The position numbers and the translations under genes were made by a program. This document shows, one piece after another, positions 755 to 61,571 of a stretch of DNA of 64,000 nt. A model generated the notes under the pieces. That model ran no database searches. It saw only the letters and a program-made list of their open reading frames with translations, and was not told the DNA's origin. How positions within the stretch are numbered: position 1 is the first letter of the stretch; each line of letters opens with the position of its first letter. Origin of the DNA: Dictyostelium discoideum. Its lineage: Eukaryota. Location of the stretch: the NCBI GenBank assembly GCA_000004695.1, contig CM000153.2, positions 384,001 through 448,000 on the forward strand, written 5' to 3'.

Positions 755-785
<31 letters not shown>

Positions 786-2040
786 GATTAATAAAAATAA
801 AGGACAACTATTTTTTTTTATTTTTTTTATTTTTATTTTTATTTTTATTTTTATTTTTATTTTTATTTTTATTTTTATTTTTTTTATTTTATTTTATATT
901 ATTTTATTTGTTTATAATAATATCTAATTATTAGAAATTATATTTGTAATTATTTAGAAATCCACCAACCAAAAAAGAATTTAAATTAAAAAATAAAGGT
1001 AAAAAAAAAAAAAGTAAACTGATCGTGTCCTTTTTTTTTTTTTTTTTTTCATTGGATATTTAAATGAAAATAGATTAATATTTACTATTTTATTATTTTT
1101 TTTTTTTTCACTCCAATTGTGCCAAATTACAATTTTTTCCCCCTTTTTTTTATAAACGATTTAAATATGATATAACCATTATTATAAATTATTCAATGAG
1201 TTTTCATTTTGAAATTTAAATTTAATTTATTGTTTTTTTCACTTATTTTTAAAATAATATTTTCATTTTTTTCATTTTATTTTTTTTATTATTTTTTAAT
1301 ATGGATTTAGTATTGACAAATAGAACACTCGAAAATACATAAAATGATATCATAAATAAAAAAAAAAAAAAAAAATTAAAATGAAACAAAAAATAAAATA
1401 ATTATTTTTTTTTTTATTTATTTTATTTCTTTTTTAATCACAATTTTTTTTTTTTTTATTAGTTTATAATTATTTACCATTCATACACAGCAACAATGCA
1501 GTTTACTTAATAAGGATGCATTGATGAACCTGATAATCAAATGATAGAGAAAGTAAAGAAATTTCAATGTCATTATGGTTAATTTCAATCATTTAAATCC
1601 AGTGTCAGGGATCAAGGAACGATTATAAATCTATCTACTATGACATTAAGAATGATAAACAAATAAAAAAATTTTATTTTTATAAAAAAAAGCAAATTAA
1701 TAAATATAAATATAAACAAAATTTATTTTAATTCCAATGGATATTGTTTTTTTTTTTTTTAATTTTTATCATTTATATTGGTTAATATTAAATGATATTA
1801 ATATTATAATATTTATTAAAAATGTATATATTTATTATATAATATTAAAATGATTTTTTTTTTAAAATAAAGTTTTTTTTTATTTTTTTAATTTTTAGTT
1901 TTTTTATTTTTTATTTTATATGTACAATTAAATAAATTTGGATAATGAATCAACAGTCTCACCTAACCATTCAAAATTATGATATTCTGCAATACTTTTA
2001 AAGATAATTAAACTAAAATAAAAAAAAAGGAATTAGTCAT

Positions 2041-2079
<39 letters not shown>

Positions 2080-2093
2080 ATAATAATAAAAAC

Positions 2094-5000
2094 TTACTCT
2101 TTAGAAAATAAATTATTTGATTGAGTACATTCCCATTGACCAGAACATTGTGGACAAATATCACCAAGGTTATCAGATTTAACATCATTACATTTTGAGC
2201 ATCTTAAATCTTGTAATTGATAAGATAATGAACGTCTTTGAATGATTTCAACTAATTGACTTTCGATAGTATTTTTAGAATAATGACCTTTACATTGAAT
2301 ACAAGATAATTCTGGAACTCTAATAATATTGTCATCATCACCTTCATTTTCTTCATTATCATCATCACTATCATCACTGTCATTGTTGTTACTCTTTTGT
2401 TGAGAAGATAATCTTGAAGAGATAGAAGTTGTATTTGTATTTCTTAATAAATCAATATCTCTACATGAATGACAAGATGAACAAATTACATCAGGTAAAG
2501 TGAAAGACACGCATGGATCTTTGAATTTAGCTTCATCAGAGAATTCTCTAACTTTCATTGATGTCATTAATTTCATTCTTAAACGTGATACTCTTGATGA
2601 GATTGATTTATCAATTGATAATACATGACAAACGAATTTAATGAATTCTAATGGTGGATTATTTAATTTCAAATAACCACCTGGTAATTGTGGAAATTCT
2701 AATGATGATTGATTAACTTGGAAATGATCCAATAATGTAAAAATACGATTAACATCAATTAATAAATCAAATTTAGATGTAGCTTTCTTTGTTTTTGATG
2801 TAGTTGTAGTTGTTGATGATGATGAAGATGGTGGAATACTAATATCTTCATCCTCTTCTTCATTCCAAGTTGAACTTTTTCTTAAATCTGGTTTAGTTGG
2901 TTCATTAATAGTATCTTTTGTAGTTGTTGTTGTTGCTGCGGTTGAATCATTATTAGAGGAGGAGGAAGTTGTACTAATTTTTTGTTTTAATAAATATCTT
3001 TGTTGTTGTTCTTTTTGAATTCTATTTAATTCATCTCTTTCAGTATGCAATTTATAAATATAATCTGAAATGATAATAATGAAAGAAGTTTGAATTTGTG
3101 GTGGTAAAAATTCTGCAATATTCCAATTGGTTATGATTTTACCATTTTTAATTTTTTTTAATTTTTTATTTTTATTCTGTTGTTGCTCTTCTTCATTTTC
3201 AGATACATCATCATCATCGTCATCATCAGCATTATCTTGTTGTTGTTGTTGTTGTTGTTGATTTTTATTAATTAATGGATTAAAATATAAAATACCAGAA
3301 TAATTTGAATTATTTAACCATAATAAATTATGATAATAATTTGTTTGTTTAAAATTAATCCAACTAAATAATTCTTTCTTTTTAATTACAGCCAAGATAT
3401 AGTTACAATAAGAACGAGCATCTTCAATTGAATCCTTTTGAGAACAAATGATAATCTTATTGAAATTTGCATAAACTATTTTACTACCCAATTTTTTAAA
3501 TTCGAAAATCAATTGAATGAAAACTTTTTTCATTAATTGATGTAAAGTACGATAAAGGATAGGATCATAAAGTTTTGAATTGGTCGAGCTAATCCAACGA
3601 TAGAAATGTAATAAAAGATAATTTGAATAACGTGAACTAATTTCATTTCTTTTACTATTACTACCTGATACTAAATCCAATTTCCATTTTGATACTAAAT
3701 TTCTAAGAATATTAAATTCTTTTTCACAACCACTAATTTGATGATTAATTGCTGATCTAAATTTATTTGTAATTGATAATTTATCAAATGATGATGTTGT
3801 ATCATTTGTAGTATTTTGATTTGCACCATTTTTGGTATTGGAATTATTTGAAGTATTTTTAATATCATCAAACATTGCAACATTTGATTCATCACCTAAT
3901 TCATTACCTAAAATACCTTCAATTTCAGCCAAATGAATTGATTCCAAGATTGTATTTGTTGCTAAATTTTCAATATCCAATTCGAAACAAACTTGATTAT
4001 AACAATCTGAATTATTAATTTCAACATTATTTAATTCTTCATAGAATTTTGCATCATCTTCTTCTGAACCACCTAAATCTGGGAAGTTTGAATCAGACAT
4101 CCAAAGGAGATGTTTTTGTTCAACCAAAGAACGAGCATAGAGAATATCACACATGAATGATGCATTATCAGTTGGAATATTACCAATGGGTATATTTGCA
4201 TAACGTGACATATTTGCATAGTAAACCCAAAGTTTTGGTGCATCCATTAAACGTAATGGTAAGGGTTTCAATGAATGAACATCCCAATTGAATGGTGAAT
4301 ACATTGAATCGTTGTCATGGTAAGGTACTGGTACACGTGGGAATTCTCTAAGTATTGGAATTTGTTCCAATATTCCAATTGCATTTGGAACTTGTAGTAG
4401 AATGATAGTTGGTAAACCTTTACGTTGATATTCCATAATTAATGAACCAATTTCTTTTTTTGCCAAAGACATACTTGATTTTTGGTCCATTGTAAAGGTG
4501 ATTTCTGGTAGTTTCTCCTTTATGGAATTCAATACTCTTGCATCGATTTTGTTGGCGGCCATATAAGGATTTGAGAAAATAACTGAACATTGTTGAGTAT
4601 TCATATTGAAAAGAACGAAATAACCGTCTTTTCCATCACGACTATTATGATACAAAAAGAGTTGATTAAAGTTATGTTCTGCAAGATAATGAAATTGTTT
4701 ATCAGGTTTTGAAGCGATATCCTCCAAAGAGAATCTTGTGTTACTATTGACTATTTTAGTAAAGAATGGTGATACTCTTGACAAAGTAGCTACACAACCA
4801 CATTGAATAATGGCTTTAATATCCAATGGTACCTTTGTTTCATAGACACCCTCAATCATTGGATTGGTGAATAGTGTATTCAATTCCTTTGATTGTTCTA
4901 AAAATTGACTTTCACTCATTGTCACTGAAAAAACATTAAATCTTTGTTTACCTCTTGGTGGTATTACATTTGTATTCTTTTGTGCATCTTCATATGGATC

Positions 5001-8000
5001 GGTATCAATTGAATTTAAATAAAACACTCTACCAATGTCAACTTTAATTGGTATCAATTGATCCTCAATCAATGACCACATTTGATAAATACCTGGTTCA
5101 CCGCCATAAATTGGTTCAATCGATATAATATTCCAATATCCTTTTTTAATTATATCTGATTGACTCTTAAAGAATGACGATGATGAACTTTCTCTATTTG
5201 TTAATTTTGAACCAATTCTAAAACTATCACTATCAAATAATGATCCACCTAATCTTTGTCTTCTCTTTTTTAATAAACGTTGAATTTTCCATTTCTTTTT
5301 TGATATTGATAACCAACCTTGGAAATCTTTATCAATAGATGGTGTTTTAGTTTCCATAATTTGTTTTTCTTGTTCATTTGTAAATGTTTCAATTGATGAT
5401 TTTGATTTTTTAATTAAAAGACTTGAAACATCACTTGATGATTGTTTACTTCTTTTAAATTTAGTAACTTTTGGATTAAATGCTGGTAAATCTTTAAATC
5501 TTGATGAAAACATATTTTCAATATCATCAGTTTGTTGTGGTTTCGAATTATCATTATCATTATCGTTATCATTATCATTATCATTATCATTGTCTTGATC
5601 ATTATCTTCAGTTTTTTCAAAAAATGAAGTAATTGAAGTTTGTTGACGACCATCTTCATTTCTTCTAATTTCTTTTAAAATCCAATCTGGATGAATAACA
5701 CGTGGTACTGGATTTGTAACATTTTGAAGTGCAGCAGGAATTGTAATAATTTTTTGAATTACACCAGATAAACGTTGACGATAATAATCCCAATCGATTA
5801 ATTCACGAATATCTAAATCACCACTTGGAGATTTTGTCCATCTTCTAAGATAATGACAACGAGTTTCAAAATCTGCATCAAAAATTGCAACTGGTAAAGC
5901 ACGTTCAGTAATTGGTGAACCGGCTGGTTTATTGGAGATAATGTATTGACATGATAAACCTTTATCCTTGATCATATCGTCACCTAAAAACTCTGCTAAC
6001 TTTTTGGCAGTACTAATAGCTGAACTCTTTTGTGTACCATATTCTTCTAATTTTCTACTCATATTACTACTTTCGGTAATTAGTTCTATTAGATCCTTTT
6101 CTTCATAGTTTTCAGCATGACTATCTAGAATGTCTAACCAACGATTTGCAACGGCACCAACCGACTGATAACAGCCTTCCAAACTATCACCACCTAAAAA
6201 TTCTTTAAACACTTCAGATTGGAAAAGTTTAATCAATTTCAATTCACCACGTCTTTTAATTTCGAAACCTTTTAATTCACAAATACGACCTTCACGATTG
6301 AATACAGCGTAACGTTTCTTTAATTTCACATCTTTCTCTTTACTAGTTGGAATTAACATACAACGATAAGGACCATCACATTCGAATAGAATGGAACATT
6401 CGTCACGAATTGTATAAGTGTTGGTTTCAGCATTGTAATCTTGGTATTGATGATTTGTGAAACTTTTTGCAACTTTTTCATTCAACATTTCGCAAATGTA
6501 AGAAAAAGTAACTTTTTTACCAGTACTGGCTGATTTTAATGTGTAATTCTCTGGGAAATGTGATGGAAGTATACACCAAATACCATCGGTATCAATCTCT
6601 AATGGTCTACCCATTTGCTCTACCACTTCTCTTGCTTCTTTAATGATGTTTGAACCTGTATGTGTTACAATACCTGCCATTTGCATAGAATACCAACGAG
6701 CACCTTTTCTCATTACATAACCATAGAAAGAGTTTAGAATACACTTGTGAGCTAATTGAAGACTTTCATAGAGTACAACCATACCTTGTGCAGCTACCAC
6801 AGCAACACTATTGGTACCACCAGATTCTTGCATTGCTTGATCATACTTTATCTTCCAATCACGATGATGATTCTTGAAAACATAACGACGATCACGGAAT
6901 AGACGTACAGTATCGACGTAGAATGAATTTTCACGCATACAAATAGTGTCGGAACGAATTTCTTGTGTGATTTGATGGGTTTTTCTATAGACTTTTCTAG
7001 AGTACTCTTTTAAACGTTTTCTTAATAATTCATTACGTTTCTCTTCACTTAGTGATAAGAATGATTTTCTTTCATCTCCATCACCAAATTTCTCAGATTC
7101 CAATTGTTGTAGAATTAAACGATACTCTGACTGATTCGATGGTGAATAGTCACCCCTCCATTGCCAGTCGAGAGTACGTTGACATTGAGACTCTGGTTTA
7201 TTGTAGACACAAGTGGCACAAACCTCGTCATTGACCACTGCAGTTGGTTGAAGTTTATTGGTGAGAATAATATTGGGATACATAGCAGACACATCAAGAT
7301 GGTAAATTAATGGATGTGATTGTTGTTTTGGATTCTCTTTTAACAATGTGAATTTCTTTAATACGTCTTCTTTCACTTCTTGATAATTACTAACGGTATC
7401 TAATGGAATGCCGCCCTCCTTCAATGCAAACTTCAAAACTTGATCAATGTTACCCATATGCTTTTCAATTGAAGCAGGGTCTAATGAGAAATTAGTTGGA
7501 ATATCTGATCTGAATACACCAGACTCTAAACACTCTACATGACCACCCACATAAGTCTCGCTCTCTAATAAATGACCCTTATACATACTATTAATATCAT
7601 CCTTATGTTTATTTGGAAATATTACATCAGCTTTAAAAGCTTGAGTCATTAACAAGGCTTCACATAATGTACCTGAACCTTTTCTAAGCACATCGTCTGG
7701 ATTCATTGGAATAATTGTACAAAGTGAGAAAATGAATGGATGAACATAATTCATATAGAGATAATAAGTTGCAACTGCATCGGAAACTGAGTAATTTGCT
7801 AAAGTTTCAGGATCCTCTTGAGCAGATTTTAACATTAACTCTGGATCCAACTCTAATGGATCGTATCTTAACTTTTCTCTTGTGACCGCTTTCAAACCGT
7901 GACTGCCATGTGGAAGATAACTGTCTCTCTTCACCCAGCAAAATGCATCCATATGAGGGTTGATCTTACTTCTATACTCGCCATTATCATTTCTAAATCC

Positions 8001-9596
8001 AATCTGATGAAACATACTCAAACCATGATACTCTGCTCTACTTTCAACAAAAGGCCAATCAAACATATCACCATTGTACGATACGAATATATGGGGTTTC
8101 TCTCTTTTAATTTCACTGAAAAACCTCTCCAATACTGATTTCTCATCGGGTTCATTAAAAACGGTGAATGGGCCATAATATTCAGGCTTTGGAGTATATT
8201 CGAAATCTTTGATATCCTCAGACACGATTTCACGATTTACAATTAAATAACCTTGTTTATCCAACATATAAGAGATCATCATAATTGAATCAATTGAAGA
8301 ATCTGGAAATTTCAAAGGTAGCTTAGTAGTTTCAATATCATATGCCAACACTTTTGGATCAGGTCTATCAACACGAGTCGTTAATTCATTCACTGTTGTC
8401 AATCTACCATTCTTTATAACTGTATACCATAACCCAACACGAATATTTAAATCAATTGCTGCTCTAACATAATATGGTACATCATATTCTCTAATATCTA
8501 ATATATATTCAGTTGCTTGTTTATTTAATTTACTATTATTATTATTATTATCATCTTTATTTAATTCTTTATTAAAATTATTATTATTTTGATTATTATT
8601 ATTATTATAATTTTGATGATTATTATTATTATTATTTCCTTTATTATAATATGAATTTAAAATTTTATTTAATGATTCATCTTCATATGCTTCACTTGTA
8701 TTTGATTTTTGTTTATTTCTTTTAATGATTGGGAATAAATCATTACGAACTGATAAAAGTGTTGAAACGTTATGAAAACGAATTTTTAAATATTTTCTTT
8801 TTAAACCTGATAAATGATTCTCTAAATCTAAATCCTCTTTATCCATAATATCAATACCTGCTATATCTTTTTCATAGGTACTCTTTAAATATGATTCTAC
8901 TTCTGATTGATGACCTTCCTTTACATAAATATAAAAATATGGATTATAAGGTATCCATACTCTAAATGATGTTGCATCATCTTGAATAAAAAATAATTCT
9001 AATGAAGCTTTTTCAATATCAAGTCCATCTTTTGATGATCCCTGGGGAGGGGGTTTATAAATAAAAAATAAAAAATAAAAAATAACAAATAATAAAAAAT
9101 AAAAAAATTTATTATTTTGGGGGTGGTAATAATTTGAAAAAATTATTAATTTGGTAATTTAAAAATAGAAATGAAAAAATAAAAATAAAAATAAATATAA
9201 TTATTAGTATAAAAAAGGAAAATTTATTTATATCATAATTAAAAATAGAAAAAAGTAAATTACTATTATTATAATTTTAAGATTTTATTTAGATAGTAGT
9301 TATAATAATAATAATGTGGTGGTGGTTGTGGTGGGTAGTGTGTTTATGTGTGATTTTTATATAAAAATAAATAATTTATAGCAATTGCTATTTATGAATG
9401 TTTATTTGATATTAATCGTTTATCGTTGTTTTTTTTATTTTTGAAAAAAAAAAAAAAAAAAAAAAAAAAAGGTACTACTTACAGGTTGCATATTTAATAA
9501 CCAACCCTCCTTTTCATAATTTTTGAAACCAACATATTTATCGTTTTCATCTTTTTCATCTTTATTTTTTTTATTTTCATTCCATTTTTGAGACAT
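2094..9596 (-). CDS. pole: DNA polymerase epsilon catalytic subunit A. Two exons: 9483..9596 and 2094..9041; the intron is 9042..9482.
   Basis: Exon 1 reads MSQKWNENKK...YEKEGWLLNMQP and ends at a GTAAGT donor; human POLE has GWLINMHP at the same point. Exon 2 starts after a ...cccccag acceptor with GSSKDGLDIEKASLELFFIQDD..., matching the POLE N-terminus. The ORF carries the exonuclease motif DIETTKLPLKFPD, polymerase motif A YHLDVSAMYPNIILTN, YGYVMRKGARWYSMQMAGIV, motif C EIDTDGIW, and C-terminal Cys4 zinc modules. About 2353 aa in total. Confidence 0.9.
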
Positions 9597-9803
9597 GGTT
9601 TGATTATTATTATTATTATTTTATTATTTGCGTGTGTTTTTACACACCTTTGCTATTATTACTTAAAATGATAACAATTGATGTGAATTATAACACTTTT
9701 TTCATATAAAAAAAAAGTAATTTTTTTAATGAAAGAAAAAAAAAAAAAAAAAAAAAAAATAAAAAATAATTTTACAAAAAAAAAAAAAAATAAAAAAAAA
9801 AAA

Positions 9804-9814
9804 CCCGCCAAAAA
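9804..9814 (-). promoter_or_regulatory. E2F-like site in the pole promoter: TTTTGGCGGGTTT on the minus strand, about 210 nt upstream of the pole ATG.
   Basis: The + strand reads aaacccgccaaaa. Its reverse complement, TTTGGCGGG, matches the TTTSSCGC E2F consensus, and the gene is an S-phase replication gene. This is inference only. Confidence 0.3.
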
Positions 9815-10506
9815 TTTATGGAGGGAAATTGGATGAAAAATAATTTTGTTTCTGAAAATAAAAAAAAAAAAAAGAAATCTTGGATATTTTAAATACACCA
9901 AACACATATAATTTATATTAATATAATAATAATTTTTGGTTATACTAAAAAATAATGATTAATATAATTTCCCCCCTTTTCCCCCCACCACCTAATAATA
10001 TTATTGCTTTTATTTTTATATGATGTTTTAAAAAATCAATACTTACACATATCTAAGTACACCATTTCTTTATCCATAAAACACTAATAATTAATTAATA
10101 GTTACATATATGTAAATGCATAATTCATTATTACTATTTTTATATCAATCACCCCTCCACACATTTTTTATTAAAAAAAAAATAAAAATGAAATAAAAAA
10201 AAAAAAAAAAAAAAAAAAACTCTAGGAACCACATGGTGAAAAAGGGAAAGATCATCTTATATCTTTAAAAGTAAAAAAAACATGTGTTTTTTTTATTATT
10301 TCAAAACTTATTTTTTAAAATTTTTTTCATTTTATTTTATATTATTTTATATTATTTTTTATTATTTTTTAAAATTATTTGATTTTTTTATTTGTTTTTA
10401 CTATTTAAACTTTTATTTTTTTTTTTTTTTCATTTTCTTTTTCAAAGTTTTGAAATAATTTATACATTTACATACATAAATACACCAATTAAAATGATTT
10501 AGAAAG

Positions 10507-10546
<40 letters not shown>

Positions 10547-10761
10547 AAAAAGAAAAATTAATAAAACAAAAAAAAAAAAAAAAAATAAAGCTTACTATTA
10601 TTTATTATATTTATATATACATATAATATATATATATATACGATTAGTATTAATACAACCCATAAGAAATAAAAAATAAAAAAAAATAAAAAATTTAATA
10701 AATAAAAAAAAAAAAAAATAATTAAATAAAATAATAATAATAATAATAAAAATATAAAAAG

Positions 10762-12456
10762 ATGATAAAAAATAATAGTAATGAAAATATATTAGTTATA
10801 AATTCAAATGATAATATTGAATTAGAATTAGAAAGTGATTTATTATTATATGATAATAATAAAAAGGAAATGTTTATAAAGAAAGAGAAAAAGATAAAGA
10901 CAATAAATATATCAATAGTATTTGCAATATTATTTTTTGGTGAAGTTGCAAGAGGTATAATTATTCCAACAATAAATTACTATTCAATATTGGTAGGTGG
11001 TACAGCGACGACATTGGGAATGGTGATATCGGCATTTAGTGCCGGTAGATTTTTAGCAACGATAGTACTTGGTTATTTCTCGAAATTCGATACCTATAAA
11101 AACATATTCAACATATCAATGGTACTTTGTATTATCGGTTCACTTTGGTATAGTTTCAGTTACATAGACCAAGGTAATCCGTTCATTGGTCAATCGTCAT
11201 TGGTAATTTCAAGATTCGTTTTGGGATTTGGTGCTGGTACATTGAGTACTGCACGTTCATTCCTCGCTGATATAACCATTCCATCAGAGCGTACCACTTG
11301 GATTGCACTATCATCAGCACTCCAATTCCTTGGATTTGCAGTTTCACCAATCATAGGTTCACTCCTATCCTATATACCACCCTTCTCAATTGATGAAGTT
11401 ATTAAAATAGATTCTATAACTTTACCTGGTTGGTTTTTAACATTCCAAAATTTCATACTTTTATTAATGATCATTTTCTATTTTCAAAATCCAACTTTAA
11501 ATCAATTAGCATCAAATAATAATAATATGATTAATTCATCATCAGATTTAAATTTAAATAAAAAAAATAATAAAAGTGGTAGTAATAATAATAGTGATAA
11601 TGAACAAGATGATTTTGAAATCGAAAGTTCATCATTAAAAAGTAGTGGTGGTGATGGTGATGGTGGTGATGGTGGTGGTGGTGGTGATAGTAGTACTACA
11701 CAATTATTATTAAATCAACAATCATCAAATAATTCAAAACAACAACAACAACAACAACAAAATCAATCAATTTATAGAATATTATATAATAATAAAAGAA
11801 TTTTTATAAATTTAATTATATTTATAATTTTAAATTTCTTTATTAGAGCAATACTTGGTATTTATGAAACATTAGGTTCAACATTCTATAGTAAATTAGA
11901 TACTAGTATTAATAGTAGTACAAATTCTGGTTACTTTTTTGGTAGTATGGGATTCTTGGGTATTGTATTATTGCTTGTTATAAGTTGGCTTTGCAAAAAG
12001 GAATTGCTACATGACTATTGGATATTATGCTTTGGTAATTTAATAATCACGATTGGCTGTTTCGCAACTATGGTTCATCAATTAAGTTGGACTCGATTTG
12101 TATTTGGTTATATTTGCATTTGGGGCATTGGTTTCACTTTGGCTCAAACCGTCGTAGTTTCAATGTTTTCAAAAATTCTCTCAAACACAATTGGTAACGC
12201 ATCTCAAGGTACTTTAATTGGTATCATCACTGCAAGTGGTTCATTGGGTCGTGTAATTGGTCCATTATTCTCGGGTTTACTCTATAATGAAAATGACCTC
12301 TTACCATTATTCTCTTTTGCTTTTGCTTTATCTTTAATCATATTATTCTCTTCAATTTTAATGATTCCAAAAGATATTTTAAAAATTAAATATTTAAATC
12401 ATAATGATAATAATAATAATGAATATAATGAAGAAAATTATAATTTAATAAAATAA
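10762..12456 (+). CDS. Major facilitator superfamily (MFS) transporter, 564 aa, single exon.
   Basis: Real ATG at 10762. There are about 12 hydrophobic segments and an MFS motif-A-like loop (GRFLATIVLGYFSKFDTYKN). The central loop is N/S/G/D-rich. Confidence 0.6.
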   Translation: MIKNNSNENILVINSNDNIELELESDLLLYDNNKKEMFIKKEKKIKTINISIVFAILFFGEVARGIIIPTINYYSILVGGTATTLGMVISAFSAGRFLATIVLGYFSKFDTYKNIFNISMVLCIIGSLWYSFSYIDQGNPFIGQSSLVISRFVLGFGAGTLSTARSFLADITIPSERTTWIALSSALQFLGFAVSPIIGSLLSYIPPFSIDEVIKIDSITLPGWFLTFQNFILLLMIIFYFQNPTLNQLASNNNNMINSSSDLNLNKKNNKSGSNNNSDNEQDDFEIESSSLKSSGGDGDGGDGGGGGDSSTTQLLLNQQSSNNSKQQQQQQQNQSIYRILYNNKRIFINLIIFIILNFFIRAILGIYETLGSTFYSKLDTSINSSTNSGYFFGSMGFLGIVLLLVISWLCKKELLHDYWILCFGNLIITIGCFATMVHQLSWTRFVFGYICIWGIGFTLAQTVVVSMFSKILSNTIGNASQGTLIGIITASGSLGRVIGPLFSGLLYNENDLLPLFSFAFALSLIILFSSILMIPKDILKIKYLNHNDNNNNEYNEENYNLIK

Positions 12457-12518
12457 ATAAATAATTTTTTTTTTTAAAATTTACAAATTTATTATATCAT
12501 TAAATATTATTATTATTA

Positions 12519-13346
12519 TTACTTTTTGAAATTTCTAATCATTGTATAAAAGTGTGGTGCATCTTGTGTATTTGAATGTTGTTGATAAAATTTTGAAGTT
12601 TTAAAATTATGAGTTTTAAAGAATTGAGTGAATTCTAAATCACATTCAGTATAGATTGAAGCATTTTGACTATCAGCTAAATTTAAGACATGTTGAATTA
12701 AATCACTACCTCTTTTACTACGTCTATAGGAATGTTCAATTGCAATACAATTTAAATACCAATGTTTGTTTGGATGATTTTTCATCTCAGCTTGATGTAT
12801 ACGTTCTGCGAAATCTGATGATTTTAAAATTCTTGATAAAACTGATACACCCAATTTAATTGGTGCCATATACATACCAACTTTAAACATCTCTGCAATG
12901 CTAACACCATTTACATCATGTGGTGGTTGTGCTATCATTATACCACTAATTGTTTGTTTATTATTATTATTATTATTACTATTATTACTATTATTATTAC
13001 TATTATTATTAAGTTCAAAACATCCCCAAACTCTTGCTTTTTTTAAAGCATAGGTTAACATTTTATTACAAAACCAAGTTCCACCACTGATACGATATTC
13101 TGGTGAATTGTTGAAAAAGAAATTCATAAATATATCCTCACGTGTTGATTTCTCTAATAGTATTGCTGCTTCTTGAATATCATCTTGACAAAGTTCTCTT
13201 ATTATATATGGTTTATTTTTTGGTGTTTCTTTTATAGCTTTTTCTCCATTATTATTATTATTATTTATATCTCTAAAGTTTTCAATGTTTTGAATATTTG
13301 ATGACGATGATTCATCTGGTTGTTGATGATGTAATTGTTTATCTTT

Positions 13347-13384
<38 letters not shown>

Positions 13385-13589
13385 CCATATGTTTTATAAT
13401 ATCCCTTAAAGAATAATTTGGAGTAAGATCATTGGTTGTTATTTTAATATTACAAATTGGACATGTTTCTTTTTTTTGTAACCAAACTATAATTGAATCA
13501 TTAGAGAATGAATGACCACATAATTTAGAAATTACTGGATCACTCATTATTTCCATTGTTATGGGATCTAATAAAATATCATTATCCAT
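12519..13589 (-). CDS. U-box domain protein fused to a C-terminal GNAT-type N-acetyltransferase-like domain, 356 aa.
   Basis: The N-terminus LLDPITMEIMSDPVISKLCGHSFSNDSIIVWLQKKETCPICN...LTPNYSLRDIIKHM fits the U-box consensus. The C-terminus WYLNCIAIEHSYRRSKRGSDLIQHVLNLA...ASIYTECDLEFTQFFKTHNFK fits GNAT motifs A (R-x-x-G-x-G/S) and B. Poly-Q and poly-N linkers separate the two domains. Confidence 0.6.
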
Positions 13590-13871
13590 TTTTTTTTATA
13601 TTTCTAGATATGTTTGTAGAAAAAATAAAAAAATAAAAACAAAAAAAAAAAAAAAAAAAAACAAAAGGTGAAAAAATAAAAAAATAAAAAAAAAAAAAAA
13701 ATAAAAAAATAAATTCCCTAACCCCTAAAGTGTTGTCTCTCTAAAAATGGTTGATGTATGATATTCAGTGAAACCCACCCTTATATAATTACAAAATAAT
13801 ATATTTAAATGAATAAAATAATGTTTATTTTATTTTTTATAATTATGGCTTTTTTAAATGAAATTTTTTTT

Positions 13872-13909
<38 letters not shown>

Positions 13910-14027
13910 CGAAATTGGTTTGTTTTAATTTAAAGGGTCTATATTTATTTTTGTTGATTTAATTTAAATAAATATTTATTTGCTTATATTATTTTTTTTT
14001 AATTTTATCATATTTTCCAAAAACAAA

Positions 14028-14077
<50 letters not shown>

Positions 14078-59931: not shown

Positions 59932-61571
59932 TTACCAATTTAAGAATATTAATATAATGAAAATTAAAAATAAAATTAATTGTTGTGGAATTAATAATTT
60001 AAAAGAGGTTGCAACGAATATAATGTATGGGTCATGATTTTCGTCATAAATCGGGAACGATAATTCTACTCTTGAAGATTTCTCATTAACCAATGAAGCC
60101 ATAACGCCAATAAATACTGAATTATAATCTATTGCTGGTTCATTCATTTTATAATTATTTCTATCTTCATAATAGGTATCTTTTAAATCAATTGGACCAG
60201 GTAATAATGCTCCCAAAATTGGATATTGATTATTAATAGGATTGAATTTATCAAAATTAATTGGATTATGAGATGGACGATGATGAATATTTATTGGAAG
60301 TTTTGAATTTTTAAATCCAAATTGAGAAACATATGAATAATGGTTACTATTATTTCCAAGAATAATTTCCATTTGTTTTTTTGAATAATTTATATTTAAT
60401 GTTGATTTTTTATTATTTTTTCCAAATTGATTCTAATAAACAACCACCTAAACTATATCTATTATTACCCCATTGATCAATAAAAAATAAACCATCATTG
60501 GTTTTTGGTACTTTGGTATTCCAATAATTAATTATTAAATTTGAAACATTAATATTTTCATTTAAATTCTTTTCGATGAATATACAAGCTGCTGGTAATT
60601 TATTTGCCCATGAATAAACAACATCCCATAGATTAATGTTTGATTTAAATTTATTACATTTATCTTGATAGTAGGGTTTATATTGATTAATATTTAATGG
60701 GTCAATAAAAGATAACCATGCTGATGCCCATACTATTTCATCTTGGTAACCGTCATTTGAATTATACATTTCAACATATGATGGAACACCTTGATGAGTA
60801 ATACCAAAATTCCATAATGATAATGCATGTTTCTTACATAATTTTGAATAATCAGAATCAATTGATTCAAAAACTTTTGAAGTTGAAGACATTGTTGCAG
60901 ACATTTCTAAAACAATGTCACTACTTGGATTATTCACATCAATGATTTGTTTTGAACAATCTCTTTTAATTGGTTGACCATTTTGGTCAATATATATTTC
61001 ATATGTTCTTTCCCATTTTGAATGATCAGCTTCAATTCCACATTGTCTATAAACTACATTTGGTTCTGGATGAGCTGCAATTAACCAATCAACACCAGTT
61101 TTTAAAGCTGATAAATACGCCTCAAGTAAACCACATTTGTCAATATTTGATTTAAATTCTAATAATGACCAAGATAAAGTTGTCATTGAAAATGATAATG
61201 GGTTTGAAATCTTTTGAAAATATATAATAAAATTAAATTAATAAATTATTAATATAAAAAAAATTATATTTGTTTAAAATAATTACCTTTAAATAATCAC
61301 CAGCATCAAAATAACCTCTTGATAGAAAACCAAAACCATGGTTATTTAAATCACCATTCATATAGGTATCAAATTTAGTTGAACTATTAATTTGCCAAGG
61401 AAACTCGGAAAATGGATCATTAATACCTGCTCTTTGTGCTTTGAAAAATAACAAACCTGCTTTCAAACCTTCACAGTAGTTAAAGTCATCATCAACAGGA
61501 ACAGAATAAATTAAATAAATATTAATAAAAAATATTATAGTAAATAAAAATAATAGTTTATTAAAAAACAT
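59932..61571 (-). CDS. Glycoside hydrolase family 9 endoglucanase (cellulase). Exon 1 is 61287..61571; exon 2 runs from about 61210 down, but an apparent 1-nt frameshift in an A6 run near 60395 splits it into ORFs 60413..61186 and 59932..60372.
   Basis: Signal peptide, then NYCEGLKAGLLFFKAQRAGINDP...RGYFDAGDYLK (GH9 N-terminal motif), a GTAATT donor, and an acceptor ...ttttcaaaag. This is followed by ISNPLSFSMTTLSWSLLEF, ...WGNNRYSLGG, and then in another frame QMEIILGNN.NHYSYV...NIHHRPSH...LGALLPGPIDLKDTYYEDRNNYKMNEPAIDYNSVF (GH9 C-terminal catalytic motifs). The C-terminus is a hydrophobic tail. Confidence 0.7.

Follow-up and report, generated by a model that had tools for sequence, protein, structure and literature searches.

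The laboratory strains AX4 and AX2 of Dictyostelium discoideum, which descend from NC4, have very probably lost a gene for a GH9 endo-beta-1,4-glucanase through a genuine and young pseudogenising frameshift. The encoded enzyme would probably be a secreted protein, tethered through a membrane or GPI anchor, and the lesion was probably inherited from the parent strain, its presence in NC4 itself being deduced from the two derivatives. The gene lies on the minus strand of the very A+T-rich, 64,000-nt stretch of DNA analysed here (the window) and loses its frame in a short A run within a length-variable tract, whereas intact orthologues read straight through. The frameshift is young relative to the approximately 4 % divergence from other isolates, and the event is of an ordinary kind and of modest practical interest. 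A literature search returned no mention of this GH9 locus or of DDB_G0283277.

A single GH9 domain in two reading frames

An earlier, sequence-only reading of the window had described two minus-strand ORFs as parts of a GH9 cellulase gene, and their ends are found in the sequence as it gave them, with ORF 60413..61186 finishing in ...NNRYSLGGCLLESIWKK (also given as ...WGNNRYSLGGCLLESIWKK) and ORF 59932..60372 starting with MEIILGNNSNHYSYV. The gene itself begins further upstream than the first of these ORFs, with a separate exon 1 that starts at 61571. The features of the locus, all on the minus strand, are as follows.

59932..61571, minus strand: disrupted GH9 endoglucanase locus, flanked by cdk11 and the gene for mitochondrial ribosomal protein L4 (repaired product covers Pfam GH9 1-444/444; synteny)
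61287..61571, minus strand: exon 1, with a signal-peptide-like N-terminus and the DAGD motif (translation)
61307..61305, minus strand: Asp89, in the DAGD motif of exon 1
61298..61296, minus strand: Asp92, in the DAGD motif of exon 1
61211..61286, minus strand: GT..AG intron of 76 nt, 95 % A+T (removal of the homologous segment reproduces deposited orthologue proteins)
60413..61210, minus strand: upstream part of exon 2, in frame 0 to the premature TAA (60415..60413); with exon 1, a truncated product of 360 aa
60413..60432, minus strand: 20-nt stretch left open in frame 0 as well as in frame +1, site of the lesion (frame inspection)
60416..60421, minus strand: A6 run where the reading frame breaks, within a hypervariable (AAT)n/A-run stretch (multi-strain DNA alignment)
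59932..60412, minus strand: downstream part of exon 2, readable in the +1 frame only (Pfam GH9 360-444; ATG-initiated ORF 60372..59932)
Within 59932..60412, minus strand: QMEIILGNN motif, in the downstream part of exon 2
60285..60277, minus strand: HHR motif, in the downstream part of exon 2
60141..60139, minus strand: catalytic acid Glu452, aligned with E424 of Thermobifida fusca E4
59932-60030, minus strand: C-terminal hydrophobic tail, in the downstream part of exon 2

The homopolymer at the break, GGAAAAAAT, consists of A6 at 60421..60416 followed by a tandem TAA TAA at 60415..60410, so that the in-frame reading is TGG AAA AAA TAA TAA and the first of the two stops ends the upstream ORF. 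The 146-codon ORF at 60372..59932 sits in the +1 frame relative to it. Because this +1 frame is already open from 60432 onwards (the preceding stop is a TAG at 60435..60433), the lesion must fall within the 20 nt at 60432..60413, and a net loss of 1 nt anywhere in that interval, AATCAATTTGGAAAAAATAA, would rejoin the frames. Deletion of one A, the repair previously proposed, does join the two ORFs, into a product of 520 aa that matches Pfam PF00759 (Glyco_hydro_9) over profile positions 1-444 of 444 with 321 bits, above the curated cut-off of 27.7, and an E value of 1.7e-95. Taken separately, the upstream fragment corresponds to positions 1-342 of this profile (E 1.1e-65) and the downstream fragment to positions 360-444 (E 3.8e-21); hence the two ORFs are neighbouring pieces of a single GH9 domain. 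Nor is the open downstream frame a matter of chance, since a 146-codon open frame is expected at this base composition with a probability of approximately 1e-6; the other two frames of the segment contain 10 and 22 stops. A search for a second lesion found none in the GH9 gene besides the frameshift.

In GH9 enzymes, the two aspartates of the DAGD motif serve as the base, and the glutamate of the NEx(A)xDYN motif as the acid. The catalytic domain of T. fusca Cel9A/E4 (1JS4) matches over residues 29-494 (E 1.7e-53), with the DAGD aspartates and the NE(V/P)A.DYN glutamate of that enzyme aligned with the window gene (D89 and D92 with DAGDHVKF, E452 with E424), and other solved GH9 endoglucanases (2XFG, 1KS8) are matched as well. 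Since the match to solved GH9 structures extends over 466 residues, the repaired protein very likely has the (alpha/alpha)6-barrel fold. Unlike T. fusca Cel9A/E4, the window gene has no family-3c CBM after the catalytic domain, and it encodes a eukaryotic secreted or anchored form that is truncated before the catalytic Glu. The catalytic domain is followed instead by a conserved hydrophobic tail, FKLLIPQQLILFLIFIILIFLNW, which is present in all orthologues. As its appearance suggests a GPI-anchor signal or a membrane anchor, the intact enzyme may be tethered at the cell surface. The spore-germination cellulase CelA of D. discoideum (GH9 plus CBM) belongs to the same organism and family; it is, however, a different paralogue, with a CBM where the window gene has the hydrophobic tail, and it was not among the close matches when the repaired protein was used as query; the closest cluster of paralogues obtained in this way was 53 % identical. 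For such enzymes, a role in the remodelling of slime-sheath and spore-coat cellulose has been proposed (PMC3188802).

Orthologues, synteny and alleles of the tract

The protein search with the repaired GH9 sequence identified six orthologues, each of them a single intact gene of 502-524 aa that reads straight through the break site. They come from two wild D. discoideum isolates (KAM9976157.1, 520 aa; KAM9967877.1, 521 aa), D. cf. discoideum (KAM9988766.1, 523 aa), D. citrinum (508-aa model), D. dimigraforme (502-aa model) and D. firmibasis (RB653_001585), and over the site their sequence takes the form ...GGCLLE(S/A)IW-(N)n-KKSTL(N)..KKQMEIILGNN. The sequence-only reading, which had envisaged one GH9 gene split by a frameshift in an A run and had named a comparison with orthologous GH9 genes as a check, is thus borne out, each relative having one continuous gene across this point rather than two separate ones. 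Like the window gene, the orthologues have a signal-like start, a GH9 domain and a hydrophobic tail, and they occupy the same position between cdk11 and mitochondrial L4 and contain the same intron; nucleotide identity in the discoideum clade is 95-96 %. Deletion of the homologous intron, the single one shared, yields three deposited proteins exactly (P0001, P0014, P0015). Where the flanks of the orthologues were read, the order Str_synth / Pkinase / GH9 / Ribosomal_L4 / L51_S25_CI-B8 is common to four D. discoideum-group assemblies, and the order kinase / GH9 / L4 is present in D. citrinum too. The window belongs to chromosome 4 of AX4 or of an AX4-identical strain, as its cdk11 is exactly the AX4 protein XP_639135.1/DDB_G0283279, its MFS protein is exactly XP_639212.1/DDB_G0283191, and the strictosidine-synthase-like upstream neighbour corresponds to DDB_G0283281.

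Some of the deposited models merit comment. Those of D. citrinum (508 aa; L007:2074) and D. dimigraforme (502 aa; L008:1937) use a far-upstream first exon, yet in both species, as in D. discoideum, the domain is immediately preceded by a conserved signal-peptide start, MFFNK/MFFDK, so that the deposited N-termini are probably mis-annotated. In D. dimigraforme, a further C-terminal intron seems to be present. In D. firmibasis, the cdk11 orthologue (RB653_001584) is modelled at 702 aa; the range in all the other species is 355-362 aa, and the D. firmibasis model has probably fused separate genes.

Multi-strain alignment shows that the DNA of the break site is a length-variable (AAT)n/A-run tract. 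The window allele reads TGGAAAAAATAATAAAAAATCA, one wild D. discoideum isolate has TGGAATAATAATAAGAAATCA, the second has one AAT more, D. cf. discoideum is longer again, and D. citrinum has TGGAATAATAAAAAATCA. Length differences among the intact alleles are multiples of 3, and all of these stay in frame through the tract, whereas the window lineage alone is out of frame, with a net gain of 1 nt and a premature TAA. The nearest intact alleles are separated from the window allele by at least two changes, for example AAT>AAA and then +A, and the claim that there is one A too many therefore holds as a minimal repair and not necessarily as the historical event. The exact ancestral mutation cannot be reconstructed, since a T>A substitution plus an added A (from an allele with 3xAAT) and two deletions (from an allele with 4xAAT) are equally parsimonious.

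Short-read Logan contigs add alleles from nearby lineages. Seven of them carry the exon-1 ORF of an allele close to that of AX4 (P0016); none reaches the site, the longest (L004, 1472 nt) ending approximately 60 nt upstream of it. Exact look-ups of the window's 257-aa and 112-aa ORFs returned no match. Contigs from SRR28564542 and SRR26869268 contain a GH9 allele nearly identical to that of the window, with Tyr77 instead of Asn77, one synonymous change and T7 instead of T8 in the intron, that is, three differences in 1.4 kb. In SRR28564540/43 and SRR26869256/57/67, cdk11 is identical to that of AX4, on cdk11 contigs only about 1.1 kb long. These runs appear to represent close wild relatives of the laboratory lineage.

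The orthologues are under purifying selection, every pairwise dN/dS value falling within 0.12-0.23; comparisons that involve the repaired window sequence are no exception and give 0.14-0.16 within the discoideum clade. Relaxed selection on the AX4 branch was sought as a sign of an old pseudogene; changes private to the window/AX4 (8 nonsynonymous, 7 synonymous) do not differ significantly from those on the other terminal plus shared branches (24 and 38; Fisher p = 0.38), a result that says no more about age than that the loss is recent. Given the low dN/dS and the absence of a significant difference in the private changes, the GH9 gene was constrained until recently.

Error, recoding or splicing

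The sequence-only reading had left two causes side by side, a homopolymer error and a genuine recent pseudogenisation, and it is the latter that the evidence favours, because the same A6 and stop recur in a second, independently made assembly, GCA_054883475.1. There, the two fragments of 360 aa and 146 aa are annotated as separate hypothetical proteins, ACTFIT_006845 and ACTFIT_006846, and the 146-aa ORF is on record in this assembly only. When 6.4 kb and 21.7 kb of it (28 kb in total) were aligned to the window, the two proved identical over 5.7 kb that include the whole GH9 gene. Across the 28 kb, 17 of the 60 homopolymers of at least 12 nt are discordant, the longer copy always being that of the window, compared with none of the 203 runs of 6-11 nt; the remaining differences amount to one SNP and one low-complexity patch. 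Because the assemblies differ elsewhere, GCA_054883475.1 is not the source of the window. The discordant long A/T runs lie at window positions 757-14046 and 57529-57689, and a Nanopore-based assembly that compresses long runs would fit the greater length of the window's homopolymers. The sole clean substitution (A versus T), at window position 9366 in an A+T-rich stretch, may be a true difference between AX4 and AX2, and the low-complexity patch at 57293..57362, with several small indels and substitutions between the assemblies, reflects either real variation or an assembly problem.

The depositing project produced de novo Nanopore plus Illumina assemblies of ten isolates, among which AX2-214 is the only AX4-like strain, the other D. 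discoideum isolates being diverged from AX4 (PMC12745789). For that reason, by elimination rather than from a strain label, we infer that GCA_054883475.1 is AX2-214. Its independence from the window assumes that it was not corrected against the AX4 reference, and the paper describes the assemblies as de novo. Presence in two assemblies that differ elsewhere makes it most likely that the lesion is real in the organism.

NC4 gave rise to AX2 and AX4 by separate derivations, and as both data sets carry the A6, the lesion would have been in their common ancestor stock.

Set against this is a small chance that the true gene is intact with A5 and that the extra A is an artefact of sequencing or assembly. 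The break does fall in a homopolymer of a genome with approximately 75 % A+T, and the gene is otherwise undamaged, with constraint that is not significantly relaxed. However, the two assemblies agree on the A6 while disagreeing at many long homopolymers and at none of the runs in its own length class, and one of them was built from Nanopore and Illumina reads. A run of six is well within the resolution of both Sanger and Illumina sequencing. In the protein search, neither fragment had an AX4 accession, nor did a joined model of any form, from which it appears that the AX4 annotation has no protein-coding model here; this suggests that the annotators accepted the disruption.

Production of a full-length enzyme by recoding, whether through +1 ribosomal frameshifting at AAA-AAA-UAA or through transcriptional slippage in the A run, is very unlikely. 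The AAA AAA TAA of the window resembles the +1 shift sites of Euplotes (AAA-UAA/UAG), a +1 shift would give ...WKKNKKSTL... at a length equal to that of the intact orthologues, and the downstream frame is intact, a state that is equally expected for a young lesion. Against this, all six of the orthologues are in frame and none has a shift site, and the local sequence is hypervariable, which together imply that there is no conserved recoding signal; a programmed +1 frameshift gene was accordingly rejected as a candidate. The likeness to Euplotes sites thus stops at the motif, which has no conservation among orthologues, and nothing points to the use of such recoding in this organism. UAA is the standard and efficient stop in Dictyostelium, where programmed +1 shifting is not known, and transcriptional slippage becomes appreciable only in runs longer than A6.

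That an unannotated intron removes the break, or that two separate genes are involved, has next to no likelihood. The gap between the ORFs is exactly 40 nt (60373..60412), as the sequence-only reading had held, and contains no GT. Although, further out than that reading went, 53 GT..AG pairs within 400 nt do restore a single ORF, all of them delete conserved coding sequence, the smallest removing 79 nt (60511..60433) that encode the conserved WGNNRY and are exon-like at 72 % A+T, compared with 95 % in the real intron. The orthologues are translated without interruption here, and their residues can be recognised on either side. The two-gene annotation in AX2 is at odds with the fragments themselves, since each covers only part of the GH9 domain and the second lacks a signal peptide. 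A spliceosomal intron across the break was rejected on the absence of GT from the gap, the loss of WGNNRY and the A+T content.

The truncated product and the laboratory lineage

The preferred reading, a genuine and recent frameshift, would work as follows. A net change of +1 nt, likely caused by replication slippage in low-complexity sequence, would have arisen inside the (AAT)n/A-run tract, which is predicted to encode an Asn/Lys-rich surface stretch. Translation would then halt at the TAA after residue 360, giving a product that would retain both catalytic-base aspartates, D89 and D92, and would be deprived of the last quarter of the GH9 domain (the profile beyond approximately position 342 of 444), of the HHR motif, of the proton-donor Glu452 and of the hydrophobic C-terminal anchor. 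Because the acid and the end of the domain lie downstream of the break, the 360-aa product, judged by GH9 enzymology, should not be able to act as a cellulase. The recent date of the event would account for the 146 downstream codons having stayed open and free of other damage.

In these respects the locus resembles lineage-specific unitary pseudogenes that arise from a single frameshift in a low-complexity tract. It likewise has one disabling indel, it combines homology to a functional gene with a premature TAA after codon 360, and the sister lineages keep an intact orthologue. Its neighbours are as in five other genomes and the position of the 76-nt intron is retained, and with intron and synteny both kept, the gene is not a processed copy. 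What sets it apart from other unitary pseudogenes is only its occurrence in the standard laboratory lineage.

The reference laboratory lineage would thus be without a conserved cellulase found in wild isolates and sister species, a matter of relevance both to laboratory strains as a baseline for cellulose remodelling and to cross-species CAZyme counts. For annotation, ACTFIT_006845 and ACTFIT_006846 should be treated as one disrupted GH9 gene, and the frame break should be left in place, not edited out as though it were a homopolymer mistake. The locus is also a clean example of how a coding (AAT)n/A-run tract, which is common in this genome, can give rise to a frameshift. A wider idea is offered only tentatively and is rather unlikely to hold in full: NC4, AX2, AX3 and AX4 might in effect be natural null mutants for a membrane-tethered GH9 cellulase, an enzyme that purifying selection has preserved in all other group-4 dictyostelids examined, in which case some 'wild-type' traits related to cellulose would set the laboratory strains apart from the rest of the species. 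If so, the traits affected would be the remodelling of stalk, slime sheath, spore or macrocyst wall. Less likely than this is that low-level +1 recoding at AAA-AAA-UAA still gives some full-length enzyme.

Elsewhere in the window, two long ORFs overlap on opposite strands, one of 307 aa at 33157-34080 on the minus strand and one of 861 aa at 33224-35809 on the plus strand.
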